Positions 12,024 to 40,356 of a DNA stretch of 64,000 bases are shown piece after piece. The notes beneath the pieces are model-generated. The model saw nothing but the letters and a program-made list of their open reading frames with translations. It did no database searches and was not told where the DNA came from. Numbering within the stretch: position 1 is the first letter of the stretch; every line of letters starts with the position of its first letter. Position numbers and translations under genes: made by a program. Source of the DNA: Candidatus Woesearchaeota archaeon (GTDB taxonomy: Archaea > Nanobdellota > Nanobdellia > Woesearchaeales > UBA583); the NCBI GenBank assembly GCA_027858315.1, contig JAQICV010000077.1:6186-70185 (forward strand). The letters are read 5' to 3'.

Positions 12024-13205
12024 TTATTTTAAATTTGCATTTCCTTTTGCTAACATAAATAGTTTTTTTATAATTTTAAAAGGAGAGTTTAACTTCTTTT
12101 TTGGTTTGTGCAATTCATATAATACTGAAATTGCAGGAACTACAGTAATTGCTGCTAAGAAACAAAATATTACTCCAAAAGCCATAATTTTACCTAATTC
12201 TCCTAAAATGATAAAATCACCATAAGTCATAGACCAAAAACCAATAAAACTAGCAATTGTAGTAATAAACATTGGCTTTAGGACATTTTCCATTGTTTTT
12301 TGCATTGCAAGAACCGGTTTCGCAGATGCGAGTTCTTGCTTGAACCTCATGATAGTTTGGATACCAAAATCTATTCCAATTCCAATAATCATCGAGATTG
12401 CTCCAGAACTAAAATTTGTCATTTTAATTCCTGCTGCAGCAATAAAACCAAATACCCAAATCACTCCAAATATAATTGTGAATAATGGAAGAACAGTATA
12501 AATTGGATGTCTAAATGTGAGCAATAATATTGCAATAATTGCAAATAATGAAATCATTGTAGTCTTAGATGAGTCAGGGCCCGTTAAATCTTCGGAGATT
12601 TTTCCTGCGATTGCTTCACCTGCTAATTGAACTTTTATTCCTTGAGGTTTTTGAGTATTATCAATAATTTTTTGAACTTGAGTTTGCAATTCACCAACTT
12701 CAAAACCTTGGTTTGCATAAACCCTAATTATAGTTAGAGTATATTTATCATTTACAATTCTATCAAATGTATTGGAATTATCATTCATTAATTCTTTTAC
12801 ATCTTTTAAATTATTAATTGGTTTATCATCGTTTAAATTGTAAATATTATTTCCTAGACTATCGCTACCAGTTACATCTTGAATGCCAACAACTTGATTT
12901 GATAAGATATTTGTATATCTTACAACCTCGGGGTCACGAATATCATATATATTTGAACCTAGTTCGGGGTCTAATTCGACTACTATCATAAATGCAGTTG
13001 ACTCTCCTCCACCTAGATTATCGGAGAGTTTTTGAATTCCATCAACAACTGAAAATGTATCAGGTAAAATTTCATCTACATTAGGATTGTCAACAATTAA
13101 TCTATCATATATACTAAATGATCCTACACTAATTAGTAGAGCAAATACAATTACTAAAAATGGATGATTTACAATTATTTTTGCGTATTCATGAATTAGA
13201 TTCAT
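12024..13205 (-). CDS. RND/MMPL-superfamily exporter, C-terminal half
   Basis: 393 aa ORF with an N-terminal transmembrane helix, a periplasmic-type domain and a 5-TM bundle. Confidence 0.5.
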   Translation of the reverse strand: MNLIHEYAKIIVNHPFLVIVFALLISVGSFSIYDRLIVDNPNVDEILPDTFSVVDGIQKLSDNLGGGESTAFMIVVELDPELGSNIYDIRDPEVVRYTNILSNQVVGIQDVTGSDSLGNNIYNLNDDKPINNLKDVKELMNDNSNTFDRIVNDKYTLTIIRVYANQGFEVGELQTQVQKIIDNTQKPQGIKVQLAGEAIAGKISEDLTGPDSSKTTMISLFAIIAILLLTFRHPIYTVLPLFTIIFGVIWVFGFIAAAGIKMTNFSSGAISMIIGIGIDFGIQTIMRFKQELASAKPVLAMQKTMENVLKPMFITTIASFIGFWSMTYGDFIILGELGKIMAFGVIFCFLAAITVVPAISVLYELHKPKKKLNSPFKIIKKLFMLAKGNANLK

Positions 13206-13206
13206 T

Positions 13207-14382
13207 TTAATTCATACCTCCTGTTTGATTGTAAAAATCTCTTTTTGCAATTTGTTTTTTTGCATTTTTATTCAAACTCTTAATTTCTATATTTTCATAT
13301 AGTATTATCATTAAAGGTGTGACAATTATTGCAGCAACAATTGAAGCTAAGATTCCTATTGCTAATGTTAGACCTAATTTTTGCATCATTGGTGTGAATG
13401 AAAAAGTTAGAGCTAAGAATCCTGCAAATGTTGTAGTTCCTGAAGATAATAGCGCCATTCCAATATTTGAAACTGTAGCCTCAATTGCTTTTAATTGAGT
13501 TTTTTTATTTTTGAATCTTTCTTCATTGTATCTTGTAAGCATAAAGACTCCATACTCAACTCCTAGTCCTAAAATGATTGAAGCTAGAGCAACGGATGCT
13601 ATTGACATTTTTAATCCAATATGTCCAATGATTCCTGCTGCCCAAACTAGAGCAAATAACAATGGAGTAAATACTATTATTGCTTTTGCAAAGGATTTTT
13701 CTGTGAATAATAATAATAAAAATATTCCTACTGCTGCCATTGAAAATGTTTTCAGAGTATCTGAGAATACTGTTTCTCTAATTGTTTTTCCAAAAGCAGG
13801 ACCTCCAGTCATAGTGTATTTCACTCCACCTGGTTGACCTACTGCAGACATTTTATCAAGAAGCATTTCTTCAAATGGAACTACATCTTCATATGCTCCA
13901 CCAATATTAGTTGTAATAGTTAAAATAGTCATTCTATAATTCTCACTAAATAAACCCTTTAGAGCTGGGACCATGTCTAAAAATTTTACTATATCATCTC
14001 TTGATTCAGGTGGATGAGACATCATTGCAGTTCCTAATGAAGAAGTTTGAATTACTCTTGAATCTTTTTTTAGAGAAGTTTCAAGTTCTTGTAAAAATGT
14101 TACGAAATCAGGATCTCTTAAATCAAGTAATTCATTCTCATCAGACTCATCTACTTCAAATACTAATACTACTGTATTTTCTCCTCCGAATTCATCACTG
14201 ATTCTATCTGTTAAAACATAGGCAGGCAAATGCCTTGGATTTTCTTTGTCAAAGTCAGATTCAACTTGTAGATTTGGAACACCTAAACCTATAAGTATTG
14301 TTGATATAATAACTATAGCTAAGAGTATAAATGGAAATTTGTATTGAAATTCTGCAATTTTTTCTAATATTTCTTTAATCAT
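13207..14382 (-). CDS. RND/MMPL-superfamily exporter, N-terminal half
   Basis: 391 aa ORF with the same architecture as its neighbour. The two ORFs are separated by 1 nt, consistent with a split 12-TM exporter. Confidence 0.5.
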   Translation of the reverse strand: MIKEILEKIAEFQYKFPFILLAIVIISTILIGLGVPNLQVESDFDKENPRHLPAYVLTDRISDEFGGENTVVLVFEVDESDENELLDLRDPDFVTFLQELETSLKKDSRVIQTSSLGTAMMSHPPESRDDIVKFLDMVPALKGLFSENYRMTILTITTNIGGAYEDVVPFEEMLLDKMSAVGQPGGVKYTMTGGPAFGKTIRETVFSDTLKTFSMAAVGIFLLLLFTEKSFAKAIIVFTPLLFALVWAAGIIGHIGLKMSIASVALASIILGLGVEYGVFMLTRYNEERFKNKKTQLKAIEATVSNIGMALLSSGTTTFAGFLALTFSFTPMMQKLGLTLAIGILASIVAAIIVTPLMIILYENIEIKSLNKNAKKQIAKRDFYNQTGGMN

Positions 14383-14806
14383 TTTTTGTTAAATTCTCTA
14401 CAATCTTTCTCATACTAGAAACTATTCTTTCCTTCTCTGTTTCATCAATACTTGAGAGCATAATTTTTGCAATTTTTAGTTTTTGTTTTTTGTGATCTTT
14501 ATATGCTTCAATACCATGATCAGATAATGATACAAATACTTTTCTTCTATCTATACTCTCATCTCTTTCTCTTTTCAATAAATCTTTTTCAATTAATTTA
14601 TCTATTAGTGGAGTAATTGTTCCAGGAGTTAAATCAAACTCCTCTGCGATTTCTCCCATTGTCTTTTTTGATTTTTCAATAAAGTCAATTACTTGTAAGT
14701 CTCTAAGCGGCAATTCACAAAGAGTTTTAGAATTAGCAAGTTTTCTTTTAACTTGGGTTCCAATTGCCTCAATTAGCATAGCAAGTTCTTGTTCTTTTGA
14801 TACCAT
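14375..14806 (-). CDS. MarR-family transcriptional regulator
   Basis: 143 aa ORF with a winged helix-turn-helix and MarR-like spacing. Confidence 0.6.
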   Translation of the reverse strand: MVSKEQELAMLIEAIGTQVKRKLANSKTLCELPLRDLQVIDFIEKSKKTMGEIAEEFDLTPGTITPLIDKLIEKDLLKRERDESIDRRKVFVSLSDHGIEAYKDHKKQKLKIAKIMLSSIDETEKERIVSSMRKIVENLTKND

Positions 14807-15233: not shown

Positions 15234-15722
15234 ATGAATTTAGAAGAATTACAAAATGAGATTAATACTCAGAATCAAAGGAAAGGTGAAATAATCTCAT
15301 TAGTTGTTTCATTAGAAGGAGATATGGAATTTTTCATATCCAAATATTTTGCAAGAGATTCTAATAGAGATATTGTATTATCTTACTCAATCTTATCTGA
15401 TATAACAATAGAAAAGAAAAAACAATATATATTTGAAATTATAAAGTTTCAGGAAAGTACAGGATTTAATGAATTAAATAAAGAAATAAAAGAATTTGTA
15501 AATTTTCTTAGAAATGATTTTGATTTTGTAATACAAAAAAGAAATGCAATAGCACATTGGCATGGATTAATAGATAGTGAGAGAATTACTATTGAAAATA
15601 GAAAAAGAGTTACAACTCCTAAAGATAGATTAGAAATTACAAAAGATTTAGTTGAAGAAATTAAAATTAAAAAAGATAGAATTTCTAAAAGTTTAAAGGA
15701 ATTAGGAATTAAATATAAATAA
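15234..15722 (+). CDS. mini-HEPN protein with RNxxAH motif (Abi_2-like)
   Basis: 162 aa ORF carrying KRNAIAHW, the Rx4H HEPN catalytic motif of the AbiD/AbiF type. Confidence 0.5.
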   Translation: MNLEELQNEINTQNQRKGEIISLVVSLEGDMEFFISKYFARDSNRDIVLSYSILSDITIEKKKQYIFEIIKFQESTGFNELNKEIKEFVNFLRNDFDFVIQKRNAIAHWHGLIDSERITIENRKRVTTPKDRLEITKDLVEEIKIKKDRISKSLKELGIKYK

Positions 15723-15784
15723 CTTATTATATTAAATAACAAGAAAATGGGAAATTTAATAAAGAGAAACAACTCAAATTAATT

Positions 15785-16621
15785 ATGGATACAACTCTTC
15801 TTTTTGATGAAACTATTAATTGTTTAAAAAAAATAAATAATAAAAAAGATAATATAGATTTAAGTCAAAGTTCATTTCTGACTCCATTCTTCATTGCACC
15901 ATTAGCTGCATATTTAAATAATGTCAAATCAAAAAATTGCATATTACCAATAAGAACAGAAGTCTTTTCTTATTTAGAATATGTTAAATTTCCAACAGGA
16001 ATAAATGTAGATGAATTCAAAAGAAGAGCTGATAAAAAAACATATTTGCCCTTATTTTCATTTTATGATAATGAGATTGATAATGAAGAAATACTTAGCA
16101 AACTAATAGATTGTTTAACTATTTTTGCAGATATAAAATATAATAAAGATTTAATATATAATCCTTTAGCAGAATTAATAGATAATGTGAAAGAACATTC
16201 CCATTCTACTAAATGTGTTATTACTGCACAAATTTATGAAGAAAAGTATCTTGCAATTTCTTTAGTAGATAATGGGAAGACAATACCTCAAAATTACATT
16301 GATGCAAAATTTGGTATAAATAATGATATAGAAGCTTTTGAACAAATACTTAAAGGAATATCATCTACTGGTGATAATACTAGAGGGTTTGGTATTCAAA
16401 CATCACTTCAAGTCATTTCTGAAGCACTTAAAGGAACTATATTTATAGTTTCAGGCGGGGGAGGGATATACAAACAAGGCAAAAATCCACCTACATTATA
16501 TGATTTTACTAAATATAATTTAAAATATAAAGGAACAATTATTAATATTATCTTTGAAATGCCGAAAGAATCATTAAAAATAAATAAAATGGATTATTTA
16601 AGCAAAAAACGAATATATTAA
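15785..16621 (+). CDS. GHKL-family (histidine-kinase-like) ATPase
   Basis: 278 aa ORF with an N box (ELIDNVKEH), a G1 box (DNGKTIP), a G2 box (GFGIQTS) and a GGGG lid. Confidence 0.55.
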   Translation: MDTTLLFDETINCLKKINNKKDNIDLSQSSFLTPFFIAPLAAYLNNVKSKNCILPIRTEVFSYLEYVKFPTGINVDEFKRRADKKTYLPLFSFYDNEIDNEEILSKLIDCLTIFADIKYNKDLIYNPLAELIDNVKEHSHSTKCVITAQIYEEKYLAISLVDNGKTIPQNYIDAKFGINNDIEAFEQILKGISSTGDNTRGFGIQTSLQVISEALKGTIFIVSGGGGIYKQGKNPPTLYDFTKYNLKYKGTIINIIFEMPKESLKINKMDYLSKKRIY

Positions 16622-16673
16622 CCTTTAAATAGTCAATGAATAGGTTTATAAAAAAAGACATCATATTATATAT

Positions 16674-16979
16674 ATGAAAAAAATAGAATTATCTAAATCT
16701 TTTAAAAATAAACTAGCTTTAAGATCAACTGCTAGACATTTATTTGATATTATCATTGAAGAAAATATTACTACATTAGATTTTAAAAATATTGAATTTA
16801 TCTCTAGATCATTTGCAAATGAGTTATTAAAATTAGAAAAAGAAACAAAATTAAAATTAGAAAAAATTAATATGAGTTCAAATGTAAGTTTTATGATTAA
16901 GTTTGCTTTAGAAAATAGGACTGAAGATTCTAAAACTAATTATAAAATAGGTAATCTTGATAATTTGATTGCATTATAG
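16674..16979 (+). CDS. DUF4325/STAS-like domain protein
   Basis: 101 aa ORF with LALRSTARHL..LDFKNIEFISRSFANEL, matching the STAS-like DUF4325 pattern. Confidence 0.45.
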   Translation: MKKIELSKSFKNKLALRSTARHLFDIIIEENITTLDFKNIEFISRSFANELLKLEKETKLKLEKINMSSNVSFMIKFALENRTEDSKTNYKIGNLDNLIAL

Positions 16980-17077
16980 TTAACTTCATTTAATATTTAC
17001 TATAATTATAGATCTACAATTATATAACATTCCAATAATTAAAAAGATTTAAAAATATATTTTTCATTATATAATAT

Positions 17078-17536
17078 ATGAGTAATAAAAGAATCCAACT
17101 AGAGGCAATAGTTTATAGAAAAAAGAAAGATGAATATGAATTCCTATTGTTAAAAAGGATTCCTTCAAAAGGTCACTTTTGGCAGCCTATATGTGGAAAA
17201 ATGGAGGATAGTGATAAAAATGTATTGGATGGATGCTATAGAGAAATAAAAGAGGAAACATCAATTGATAAGAAAAATATTATAAGAGTAATAGATAATG
17301 TACATTATTTTGAAATGAATAGACATTATTTAACTCGAGAAGTTATGCCAACCATAAAAGAATATGTTTTAGCATTTGAAGTAGACACAAATACAGTAAT
17401 TAATATTGAGAATAATATTTACCCTGAGCATGAAGAATATAAATGGGTTACTTTAGAAGAAGCACTTGATTTGTTGAAATGGGAAAACAATAAAGAAGCC
17501 TTTAGTAAATTATTTGAGAATTTAAAAGATAAGTAA
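17078..17536 (+). CDS. NUDIX hydrolase
   Basis: 152 aa ORF with the Nudix box GKMEDSDKNVLDGCYREIKEETS. Confidence 0.7.
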   Translation: MSNKRIQLEAIVYRKKKDEYEFLLLKRIPSKGHFWQPICGKMEDSDKNVLDGCYREIKEETSIDKKNIIRVIDNVHYFEMNRHYLTREVMPTIKEYVLAFEVDTNTVINIENNIYPEHEEYKWVTLEEALDLLKWENNKEAFSKLFENLKDK

Positions 17537-17589
17537 AGAAACAATGCAAATCTAAATATTTATAAATATAAAAATTTAATCATATTTAA

Positions 17590-18132
17590 ATGAAAAAAAG
17601 ATATCTCATTTATGCTTTTATTTCAATAATTATTTCAGTAACAATAAACTTTAATTATCACGGTTCAGTATTAGGTTTTTTATCTATAACTATATTTAAA
17701 GGATTTCTTTTTTTCCTAGGACTAACTAGCATATATCATCTGGTTCTAAGTTTTAAAGACAAAAAATATAAAAAATCCATTTTTTTTGGAAGTTTACTTG
17801 TTTTATTATTTTTCTTTGCTTTTTTTTTGAATAATACAGAAGGTGAACTATGTTCAATGGCAATTCAATTCCCACATTTTAGAACTAATATTCTCACTCA
17901 AAAATGTGAATTTGGAGGAGGAGCTGGTTGTTTAATTGGAGAACCTTGGTATTATAATTCTGGTTGTGATATAAGTGAAGAAGAAAAATTAAATATATTA
18001 AAAAATGATGAAAAAGTTATTTTGGAATGCAAATTTATATGTGAGCAAAATTTTGAATATAAATATTGTTCAGGAATATATAGATGTAATGAATTCTTTT
18101 CTTGTGATAGTATTTCTTGTGTAGATGATTAA
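17590..18132 (+). CDS. secreted/membrane Cys-rich protein
   Basis: 180 aa ORF with a signal/transmembrane segment and a C-terminal 100 aa region containing about 11 Cys. Confidence 0.3.
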   Translation: MKKRYLIYAFISIIISVTINFNYHGSVLGFLSITIFKGFLFFLGLTSIYHLVLSFKDKKYKKSIFFGSLLVLLFFFAFFLNNTEGELCSMAIQFPHFRTNILTQKCEFGGGAGCLIGEPWYYNSGCDISEEEKLNILKNDEKVILECKFICEQNFEYKYCSGIYRCNEFFSCDSISCVDD

Positions 18133-18135
18133 TTA

Positions 18136-20097
18136 CTAATTAACAATTCTCTCCAAAATTTCTCTACTCTTCTTAGTTTTATTTTTCCAGAATGATTCAT
18201 CTTGTAATACTCTTTTTAGAATCAACTCAGGAGTTGATTTTCCTAATTGATTAAATTGAGGTTGATGATTTGTCATTAAGTTTCCTTTCTCATCTAAACC
18301 TGTTGCAGAGATTCCATCTATTCTTATTCCTTTAACTCTTTGTTCTTCAATGAATTCTTTAATTTCTCTTCCTAAGTGAGATACTGCAATACAATAATTA
18401 TTTTGCAGAGATAATTCTGTTAAGAATTCTATTAGAATTTTAGCTGCAGCACCTGGCTCAGTTATTGCTTCGAATTCATCAATTAGAATTAATTTAGAAT
18501 TTTCATGGTCTAGTATTTCAATTAGATTTCTTATAGTTTGTTCAAATGCTCCTGATCCTTGAGTTCCTGTAAATTTCTTTAAGTAAATTATTTCATCAAA
18601 GATTTTTACTGTAGAAGATACTGAAGTTGGAGATGGAAGACCCATATTAGTTAGGATATGAATTTGTAAGAACATTTCTAGAATAGTTGTTTTTCCACCT
18701 GAATTTGCACCTGTTAATACTGAGATTTTTTCATTTTCTAATTTCTCATTATTTATTGAATTAGTTCCTAGTCCGTATGAGATTGGCATTGGATTATCGA
18801 TGTATATATTTCTACTTTGAATTAATTCAAGTTTGTCTCCTAAGTTAGGATATTGAAGGTTGTATTTTTTTGCAAACTTTGAGATTCCATTAAAGAAGTC
18901 TAAATAAAAAGCATAGTCCCATAGTTTTTTGATTTGTTTATAATTAATTGAACCTAGTTGTTTGTATGTGTCCAATTCTAATTGAGAAGAGACTGAATCG
19001 ATTTGATTTAATAAATTTGCTTTTGCTTCTTCATCTAATTCAAGAGGATATGTTGAATTAGAAAATAAGAAGTCAACATTTATTTTTGCCTTTTTGAAAT
19101 CTTCTAGGATTTCTTTTTCTCTTTGAGAAATTATTTCTCTAGTGTCTTCTTTGAATTTATCCTGGAGTGCTTGCATATTTCCAGAATTTAATAATTCAAG
19201 CAGCTCATCTCCTCCTAATGAGAGTTGTTTTTTTGAAATGATTTCTTTTAGTTCTTTGTTTATGTTCTGAACCTCTTCTTCAAGTCTTAGAGCTTTATTT
19301 GTCAATTCTTTTAGTGATTCAGAAGAATCTACTTCAAGAAGCTCTTTTAGTTTTATTTGGTCTATATCTATGTCTAATTCATTATTTGTTAATTGATGAG
19401 CACAGGATTGTATTGACTTATTATATTTTGAAGATAAATCTAAAAGTTTTAATAAATTTAAAATTTGTTTCGAATTCTTTTTTATTATATTTCCGATAAT
19501 TACTTTTTGAAAATCTTTGAAAGAATAAATTTCAAAGTCAACATATAAATCCTCTTCAGTTACTAAAATAAAACTTGCACTTTGGTTTTGAGTTATTTCT
19601 TCTAATTCATTTTTTGTAACATAGAGTGAGCTAATTTTATATGAGTCATATAATAGATCTTGAATTTGTTTGTCTAGAGTATAAATTGTTTTATTAAAAG
19701 ATACCTTTGTATTAATTAGTTCTATTTGATTGATTATTGTTTTGATTTGTTTTTGAGATTCTTCATCTATATCAATTTTAGAAATACTTGAGAAAATTTC
19801 TTTTCTTTTTTTTAATTCTTTAACTTCTTTAGTTGGATTAAAAAATAGATTTGCATAATGATTTGTCTTTTGATTGAAAAATTGAGATTTTATCATATCA
19901 AATATCTTAGTTAAATGTTTTTTTGCATGTGATTGAGTGTATATCTCTTGAGTCTCTTTATTGAATAATTTTAGAAGCTGACTTGAAGTTAAATCATGAA
20001 AGTTATATAATTCATAGTTAGTCATTATCGAATTTATTTTACTTTCAGTATTAAATTTTTTTAGAAGTTCTTGTTTTAGATTATCTTGTATATTCAT
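18136..20097 (-). CDS. MutS2-like ABC ATPase (MutS domain V protein)
   Basis: 653 aa ORF with the Walker A motif TGANSGGKTT and a MutS-type signature LIDEFEAITEP. The N-terminal coiled coil has no mismatch-binding domain. Confidence 0.6.
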   Translation of the reverse strand: MNIQDNLKQELLKKFNTESKINSIMTNYELYNFHDLTSSQLLKLFNKETQEIYTQSHAKKHLTKIFDMIKSQFFNQKTNHYANLFFNPTKEVKELKKRKEIFSSISKIDIDEESQKQIKTIINQIELINTKVSFNKTIYTLDKQIQDLLYDSYKISSLYVTKNELEEITQNQSASFILVTEEDLYVDFEIYSFKDFQKVIIGNIIKKNSKQILNLLKLLDLSSKYNKSIQSCAHQLTNNELDIDIDQIKLKELLEVDSSESLKELTNKALRLEEEVQNINKELKEIISKKQLSLGGDELLELLNSGNMQALQDKFKEDTREIISQREKEILEDFKKAKINVDFLFSNSTYPLELDEEAKANLLNQIDSVSSQLELDTYKQLGSINYKQIKKLWDYAFYLDFFNGISKFAKKYNLQYPNLGDKLELIQSRNIYIDNPMPISYGLGTNSINNEKLENEKISVLTGANSGGKTTILEMFLQIHILTNMGLPSPTSVSSTVKIFDEIIYLKKFTGTQGSGAFEQTIRNLIEILDHENSKLILIDEFEAITEPGAAAKILIEFLTELSLQNNYCIAVSHLGREIKEFIEEQRVKGIRIDGISATGLDEKGNLMTNHQPQFNQLGKSTPELILKRVLQDESFWKNKTKKSREILERIVN

Positions 20098-39894: not shown

Positions 39895-40356
39895 TTATTT
39901 TTCATATATCTCAATTAATTTTTTATTTACACTAGAATACTTCTCATTAAACTTAGCAATAATCTCATTTATTCTTACAGTATCAAATTTACCATTAGGT
40001 TTAAAAAAATCAATTATGTCATGAGCTGCATGAATGTTACCCAAATTATCCTTTTCAAATTCAATAGCATTTTCAGTATGTACGAGACTATTTCTCATAT
40101 TGTTTAGAAAGTATAGGTCATCAAATAATTCTCTTGCGATTTTGCCTTCAAGCCACTTCTTTTCATTGTTTATATGTCTAAACAACTTTAGTTTTGAATT
40201 AAAACTAATTATTGAGTTATTGAATAGAATTTGATGATAGAATTGTTCTTGAGTTTTTTGAGGTTTGAGGTGTTTTATTAGGATTTGTTTTAGATAAAAT
40301 TCTACTTGATTAAACTTTAAAATAATTTCACCAATTAATTGTTCTTTTTTTTCCAT
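39895..40356 (-). CDS. mini-HEPN protein with RNxxxH motif (paralog-like of 15234..15722)
   Basis: 153 aa ORF with the NMRNSLVH motif and similar size and architecture. Confidence 0.4.
   Translation of the reverse strand: MEKKEQLIGEIILKFNQVEFYLKQILIKHLKPQKTQEQFYHQILFNNSIISFNSKLKLFRHINNEKKWLEGKIARELFDDLYFLNNMRNSLVHTENAIEFEKDNLGNIHAAHDIIDFFKPNGKFDTVRINEIIAKFNEKYSSVNKKLIEIYEK

Follow-up and report, generated by a model that had tools for sequence, protein, structure and literature searches.

A VapK/VapS-like kinase–STAS cassette as the conserved unit of a five-gene cluster in a Woesearchaeota genome

Why does a Woesearchaeota genome carry, in one co-directional run, a mini-HEPN gene with the motif of a ribonuclease (RNase), a GHKL-type ATPase, a STAS-like protein, a NUDIX hydrolase and a cysteine-rich protein, and do the five genes work together? 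The question is raised by positions 15234-18132 of a 64,000-nucleotide stretch of contig JAQICV010000077.1 (the window in what follows, meaning the whole stretch analysed), which comes from a metagenome-assembled genome of a Candidatus Woesearchaeota archaeon. A preliminary description made from the sequence had proposed a single module, in which the STAS protein and the ATPase would control the RNase. The five open reading frames (ORFs) do lie on the + strand at the coordinates then given, between a MarR gene and a MutS2-like gene, and are separated by spacers of 62, 52, 98 and 53 base pairs (bp). That genes are packed closely in one direction is, in a compact DPANN genome, weak evidence that they form a functional module. 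The reading favoured here, with a probability of about 0.6, is that the cluster is no single five-gene system but a mosaic of unrelated genes in which the second and third genes, a VapK-like kinase gene (K) and a VapS-like STAS gene (S), form the only conserved unit, and in which the mini-HEPN gene is a separate accessory gene.

The systems needed to interpret K and S were described by Chambers et al. (EMBO J 2026; PMC13373217). CapK, a protein with helix-turn-helix (HTH), STAS and GHKL domains, is switched on by single-stranded DNA (ssDNA) and phosphorylates CapS, a repressor made of a STAS and a winged helix-turn-helix (wHTH) domain; the pair controls immune operons that lie next to it. In VapKSC, VapK (STAS-GHKL) phosphorylates Ser48 of VapS, upon which the PIN-domain RNase VapC is released, and the vapKSC operon protects Escherichia coli against phage Bas42. 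VapK F54, whose counterpart in CapK is W68, is a predicted ssDNA-contact residue and is needed for defence, and in the VapK and CapK systems studied the kinase acts as a sensor only (PMC13373217). The description of this kinase–STAS switch, which senses DNA damage and sets an immune effector free, dates only from 2026 and covers bacteria alone, where the partner is fixed, being either the VapC toxin or a wHTH repressor domain. The earlier statement that a linkage of STAS, GHKL and RNase genes is not a described system is thus outdated. The partner-switching logic that had been proposed for the STAS and GHKL pair was right, by way of homology to VapK and VapS.

K (15785-16621, + strand) encodes a protein of 278 residues. 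The GHKL domain with its N, G1 and G2 boxes, recognised from the start, is borne out by a Pfam match to HATPase_c over residues 124-225 (3.6e-7; 31 bits, above the cutoff of 26.4) and by the conservation of its residues. Among 67 homologues E130, D133, N134, H138, S139, D162, R200, G201 and G203 do not vary, and at least 90% have G164. Because these residues make up an ExxxNxxxHS N box and the G1 and G2 boxes and are all present in the window protein, its ATP site is intact. The protein also matches phrog_3364 over nearly its full length (4e-30). Two domains can be delimited, a STAS/DUF4325-like domain at about residues 6-71 (nucleotides 15800-15997) and the GHKL ATPase/kinase domain at about residues 124-251 (nucleotides 16154-16537). 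The N-terminal ~70 residues are homologous to the S family (hhalign probability 91%, E 9e-7), and it is this alignment with the S profile that gives K a STAS-like plus GHKL architecture.

The K family profile was compared with Escherichia VapK, the sequence of which was taken from the AlphaFold 3 model file of PMC13373217. Positions 20-280 of the profile align end to end with residues 27-285 of VapK at 44 bits (E 9e-16, with no bias), so that ELIDNVKEHS is paired with EIYANSFEHS, DNGKTIP with DFGVGIP and RGFG with RGLG. F31 of K is aligned with VapK F54, in a column that holds F in 39 and W in 16 of the 67 sequences. A single-sequence search of a set of 5.8 billion proteins with K returned only the query itself, and no credible match was found among the PADLOC and NCBIfam models.

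S (16674-16979, + strand) is a single STAS/DUF4325-like protein of 101 residues with a short C-terminal tail. Its assignment to DUF4325 had been proposed from a sequence pattern and is consistent with its relatives: the score against the family model (PF14213) is 21.9 bits, just below the Pfam gathering score of 23, while the homologue in phage BF1-TP2 is annotated DUF4325 and the core LDFxxVxFISRSFADE is common to the family. S matches phrog_20761, like phrog_3364 a family without assigned function, at 4.8e-4 and has no credible match in PADLOC or NCBIfam. When a profile of 66 S sequences was searched against the whole PDB, VapS (9z7o_A) was the only significant match (E 0.0028-0.0045). By profile comparison, then, the second and third genes are homologues of VapK and VapS. 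Position 44 of S is Ser or Thr in 65 of the 66 sequences, R45 is found in 62 and S46 in 64. VapS Ser48 aligns between Ser44 and Ser46 (the VapS and VapC sequences used here are from the 9Z7O coordinate file), and the phosphorylated Ser54 of CapS falls opposite Ser46 in the S-F motif, in an alignment that is not significant. The likelier candidate for the acceptor serine is Ser46, with Ser44 as the alternative, both within the motif FISRSF. The S gene also contains an exact 16-nucleotide direct repeat, ATTAAAATTAGAAAAA, at 16826-16865 (spacing 24 nucleotides), which encodes a repeated KLKLEK segment and is probably a trivial low-complexity feature.

How constant is the pairing of K with S? A tblastn search of phage and plasmid records with K found gp43 of Bacteroides phage BF1-TP2, a gene on an unannotated faecal phage contig, ORFB of psiM100 and a gene of a Halobaculum plasmid. 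All four kinase genes are directly followed by an ORF of 88-119 residues with the core LDFxxVxF[IVM]SRSFxxE, the S homologues being gp42 in BF1-TP2 and ORFC/MTH316 in psiM100. A pattern-based scan covering one genome per GTDB species gave 79 loci. Twenty-eight are archaeal, from Woese-, Pace-, Nano- and Micrarchaeota, Thermoplasmata, Methanosarcinales, Methanobacteriales, Methanomassiliicoccales and Nitrososphaerota, and nearly all the others belong to Bacteroidota. Of 82 genomic loci, 76 have S immediately downstream of K and on its strand; the median gap is 12 bp, and the two genes often overlap. Contig ends account for four of the six exceptions. IMG/VR contains at least 107 viral contigs with the kinase. 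S is next to K in 78 of the 80 that were retrieved, among which there are just 12 distinct kinase sequences. Identity across lineages does not exceed 35%, and Woesearchaeota that are close relatives lack a conserved context. The K-S cassette (15785-16979) is mobile, being found on phages, in the prophage insertion psiM100 IFa and on a haloarchaeal plasmid, and sporadic in archaea and Bacteroidota.

The other genes of the window do not accompany the cassette. The loci examined comprised 83 from genomes, phages and plasmids and the 80 viral contigs, about 160 in all. A profile of the mini-HEPN family found no member at any of these ~160 loci, and no homologue of the window's NUDIX or cysteine-rich protein is present at the 83 genome, phage and plasmid loci. 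Since the genes never co-locate elsewhere, an outcome that the preliminary description had itself named as speaking for a fortuitous adjacency, the five-gene module is unsupported, and the K-S cassette is the sole conserved unit of the five genes. VapC likewise has no homologue in the window, at the 83 loci or at the 80 viral loci (phmmer, best E 0.48), and no PIN family recurs in the censuses of the neighbours. The 108 proteins that flank K-S at positions -1 and +1 match 158 Pfam families; phage integrase, in three proteins, is the most frequent, and no family exceeds that number. BLAST clustering of the neighbours gave a single cluster, which spans only three loci, and the 119 small ORFs within 1.2 kb of K-S pairs include no recurrent nuclease or toxin family. 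PADLOC models match only a handful of the neighbours, and for K and S PADLOC has none. Every other K-S pair evidently works without an adjacent effector. A single Thermoplasmatota locus (L075:3594-4025) has, about 640 bp upstream of the pair and co-directional with it, a PIN_2 gene (7e-16). No other PIN gene was seen close to a K-S pair, and this one is not related to VapC.

What, then, is the mini-HEPN gene? It lies at 15234-15722 on the + strand (PF569_07345 in NCBI) and encodes 162 residues, with the motif RNAIAH at residues 103-108. A single-sequence search of the same 5.8-billion-protein set returned only the query. An exhaustive phmmer search, run against 1.8 billion representatives, brought up 24 distant relatives with lengths of 143-195 residues and one fusion of 294 residues. 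In an alignment of 25 sequences N104 is invariant and R103, A107 and H108 are each conserved in at least 90%. The RNxxAH motif that had been noticed in this protein is therefore no chance match, being conserved across distant relatives. The protein itself has no Pfam match and no credible match in PADLOC or NCBIfam. A Pfam scan of the family member by member gave sub-threshold matches to HEPN_RiboL-PSP in nine of the 25 (best 5.5e-4) and to Abi_2 in eight (best 2.1e-3), with scattered matches to five other HEPN families. An AlphaFold2 model built from the family alignment (mean predicted local distance difference test score (pLDDT) 89.5, predicted template modelling score 0.84) is confident and shows a helical bundle with RNxxAH at the end of the third long helix; unrelated helical bundles score similarly. 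Foldseek found nothing significant for this model in the PDB, and the family profile has no sequence-level match there. It is the combined evidence, and not any single test, that makes the protein HEPN-like, and on the same combination it is probably an RNase.

The surroundings of its relatives differ from those of K-S. Four mini-HEPN relatives were located by their exact sequences and about eleven further loci were found in metagenomes, and in the flanks of none of these ~15 loci is there a K or S gene. Five loci from about three lineages (L086; L096/L097; L101/L102) have the HEPN gene directly after hsdS or hsdM of a type I restriction-modification (R-M) system, as in L086:1697-8665, L097:2739-4489, L101:237-4480 and L102:866-4486. 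The order in L086 is hsdM, hsdS, a gene for a 189-residue protein, HEPN and a gene for a 267-residue protein, with hsdR convergent; the co-operonic 189- and 267-residue proteins have no Pfam match. A position behind hsdS or hsdM is classic for abortive-infection-type nucleases. The mini-HEPN gene is best read as an independent, RNase-like accessory gene of the kind found in R-M islands, and that it stands beside the cassette is most likely coincidence, two accessory genes of low GC content having come to lie side by side.

The composition of the stretch is consistent with such an accessory origin of the HEPN, K and S genes and with a native NUDIX gene. HEPN has a GC content of 0.219, K of 0.246, S of 0.193 and NUDIX of 0.27, compared with a mean of 0.27 ± 0.03 in 800-bp segments of the window. 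The HEPN and S genes fall at or below the 5th percentile of these segments, and the NUDIX gene lies at the mean. The flanks of 15234-16979 contain no direct or inverted repeats, integrase or tRNA that would mark an insertion, and tRNAs are the only Rfam matches in the window.

The two genes that follow the cassette are ordinary neighbours and lie outside it. The fourth gene (17078-17536, + strand, 152 residues) encodes a NUDIX hydrolase, as had been recognised, and is NudB-like; it matches the Pfam NUDIX family (PF00293) at 2.7e-16, 60.2 bits against 21.1. Its nearest NCBIfam model is that of NudB (NF006961, dihydroneopterin triphosphate diphosphatase), with 58.6 bits against an equivalog cutoff of 103. 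The fifth gene (17590-18132, + strand, 180 residues) encodes a membrane protein with three hydrophobic N-terminal segments and a cysteine-rich tail, the feature for which it was first singled out, all 10 Cys residues being located in the C-terminal 93 residues. It has no family match in Pfam, PADLOC or PHROGs.

On either side of the cluster lie genes on the - strand. The MarR gene (14375-14806; MarR_2, 1.6e-8) heads an apparent operon (12024-14806) with two MMPL-family half-transporters of ~390 residues each (7.8e-29 and 6.6e-27), upstream of the five genes, and therefore belongs to this exporter and not to the HEPN or K-S genes. The MutS2-like ATPase (18136-20097) is convergent to the five genes and highly divergent in sequence. 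Its match to TIGR01069 (9e-19, 67 bits against a cutoff of 400) is below the cutoff and is confined to the P-loop/MutS domain V region. This protein also resembles the KamC reactivase ATPase.

A second mini-HEPN-like gene is located in the window at 39895-40356 on the - strand. It encodes 153 residues with the motif RNSLVH and had been described as a paralog of the first, lying beside a tRNA-associated mini element. The relationship stands as that of a distant homologue at the profile level, since the protein aligns end to end with a family profile built without it (29 bits); in BLASTP the similarity to the first protein is not significant. The gene does not adjoin a tRNA: the nearest, a tRNA-Cys, is ~0.9 kb away, and a tRNA-Glu ~1.7 kb. 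Its orthologues form a separate conserved archaeal group of 153-154 residues, and one of them (P0052) adjoins the genes for aCPSF1, a beta-CASP RNase, and the L1/L10/P1 ribosomal proteins. This orthologue context suggests a housekeeping, RNA-related role rather than a role in defence.

How might the K-S cassette act? By homology with VapKSC and CapKS, K would be a Ser/Thr kinase of SpoIIAB type, with the STAS-like domain as its sensor, and would be activated by a stress signal. In the characterised relatives this signal is ssDNA, and an aromatic residue at the predicted ssDNA site is kept in K as F31. Activated K would phosphorylate the near-invariant serine of S (Ser46 or Ser44), and the phosphorylation would alter what S binds. 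The partner of S in this clade would be neither the VapC PIN toxin nor a protein encoded at a fixed neighbouring position. A role of the pair in defence may be proposed on the same grounds.

Several observations weigh against the mosaic reading or limit its reach. The HEPN gene is co-directional with K and lies just 62 bp upstream of it. VapKSC, the sole characterised relative of VapS type, gates an RNase toxin, which makes a HEPN RNase a plausible alternative effector. TATA-like octamers precede the starts of the S, NUDIX and cysteine-rich genes by ~25-33 bp, and no T-runs occur between the five genes; such TATA-like strings are frequent in DNA of 25% GC and so do not establish separate promoters. 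The scan of metagenomes gave no close relative of the MutS2-like neighbour, and no related genome in which synteny with and without an insertion could be compared. A single-sequence structure model of K reached a pLDDT of only 34, so the fold of K rests on sequence profiles. Finally, to call the cassette autonomous is a description and not a complete mechanism.

The proximity of the HEPN gene would be explained if HEPN, K and S together were a phosphorylation-gated toxin, an archaeal analogue of VapKSC in which a mini-HEPN had been captured in place of VapC. S would then bind the HEPN dimer and silence it, and K, once ssDNA or infection had activated it, would phosphorylate S at Ser46 or Ser44 and free the RNase. 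The homology of K and S to VapK and VapS fits this proposal, as VapS is the antitoxin of an RNase, and so does the HEPN gene itself, which is co-directional at 62 bp, has a low GC content like S and retains an intact RNxxAH motif. The comparisons, however, give it no support in ~175 loci searched from both directions. The recurrent partner of the HEPN family is type I R-M, the gene order is unlike vapK-vapS-vapC, and the other K-S pairs evidently work without an adjacent effector. We regard a three-gene toxin as quite unlikely. Were it real, the VapC-less K-S pairs would be a plug-in sensor for varied and sometimes unlinked effectors.

That the pairs stand alone could also mean that they are complete as they are. 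K-S might be a two-gene toxin-antitoxin or abortive-infection module with a harmful kinase, in which K phosphorylates or sequesters an essential host factor or consumes ATP and S is a pseudo-substrate inhibitor, on the model of unphosphorylated SpoIIAA holding SpoIIAB. The short or overlapping spacing of an autonomous pair (the median gap of 12 bp) is typical of toxin-antitoxin genes, and the occurrence on phages, on a plasmid and in a prophage insertion, sporadic in archaea and Bacteroidota and with no linked effector, would suit such a module. However, no VapK- or CapK-type kinase is known from experiment to be toxic, those that have been studied act as sensors only, and the neighbours are mostly housekeeping genes and not defence islands; this possibility is unlikely. 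The same neighbours, overwhelmingly metabolic or housekeeping, together with the few PADLOC matches and the lack of a PADLOC model for K and S, could point to a housekeeping stress-signalling switch with no antiviral role, in which S regulates an unlinked target and the other genes of the window are mere neighbours. The patchy distribution argues against this, as do the identity of at most 35% between lineages, the lack of a conserved context in close Woesearchaeota, the frequency of the pair on phages and the role of the closest characterised relatives in phage defence, and such a switch appears very improbable.

What is new here is a large VapC-less sister clade of K-S pairs, present in at least eight archaeal lineages, in Bacteroidota, in gut phages, on a haloarchaeal plasmid and in the psiM100 insertion. 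The small R-M-associated mini-HEPN family is new as well. If K-S is functional, the signalling logic of VapKSC and CapKS would extend to archaea and to phage-encoded versions.

With respect to known systems, the mini-HEPN protein is comparable to the HEPN proteins linked to R-M and abortive infection (HEPN_RiboL-PSP, Abi_2/AbiD-AbiF and the HEPN-MNT toxins). It likewise has the Rx4H motif with Asn after Arg and a predicted helical-bundle fold, and several of its relatives are located in type I R-M operons. It differs in that the protein alone reaches no Pfam HEPN model and that no MNT or other antitoxin partner was seen. Unlike its R-M-linked relatives, the gene in the window does not adjoin a R-M system.

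In the SpoIIAB-SpoIIAA and RsbW-RsbV modules a Ser kinase of the GHKL fold with an ExxxNxxxH N box acts on a single-domain STAS substrate, as would K on S. Weak matches of the S profile in the PDB to the SpoIIAA-like STAS proteins 4hyl and 3t6o (E 0.6-0.7) point in the same direction. The difference is that K carries a STAS-like domain of its own and that no PP2C phosphatase was noted near the pair. We know of no sigma-factor target in archaea for a switch of the SpoIIAB/RsbW type.

K-S shares with CapK/CapS the pairing of a GHKL kinase with a STAS substrate in an interaction that would resemble that of SpoIIAB and SpoIIAA. K, however, has no N-terminal HTH and no room for one, because its STAS-like domain starts at about residue 6. 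S has no C-terminal wHTH (101 residues, no HTH match) and so cannot be a repressor of the CapS type, and the gene downstream of the pair encodes a NudB-like NUDIX protein and is not part of an immune operon. Membership in CapKS was rejected on these grounds and because the S profile shows no significant similarity to CapS.

The likeness to VapKSC is closer. K has the same STAS-like plus GHKL architecture, its N134 corresponds to VapK N160 and its F31 to VapK F54, and S, like VapS, is a STAS protein of ~100-120 residues that has a conserved Ser/Thr and ends in a short tail; its gene comes right after that of the kinase. In contrast to VapKSC, neither VapC nor any other PIN gene follows the pair, here or in the ~160 related loci, and the low sequence identity of K and S to VapK and VapS shows up only with profiles. 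The hosts also differ, being archaea, Bacteroidota and their viruses, which are unmentioned in the main text of PMC13373217. As both VapC and the features that define CapKS are missing, K-S is classified as a VapC-less VapK/VapS variant that is a member of neither system.

The direct homologues of K and S in Methanothermobacter are ORFB and ORFC of psiM100 IFa (MTH315 and MTH316 in M. thermautotrophicus). In psiM100, a prophage of M. wolfeii, a 2.8 kb fragment that bears the annotation of an insertion contains both, and the pair (L003:3773-4904; NC_002628.3 7090-8221) is labelled as hypothetical only. In psiM100 the pair is followed by ORFD, a protein of 492 residues with no counterpart in the window. 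ORFD had been suspected by eye to begin with a PIN domain, which would have made IFa a vapKSC locus; it has no Pfam match, and PHROGs gives an acetyltransferase-like region instead. Through the comparison with VapK and VapS, MTH315/MTH316 and psiM100 ORFB/ORFC, hypothetical proteins since 2001, acquire a name and a hypothesis that can be tested.

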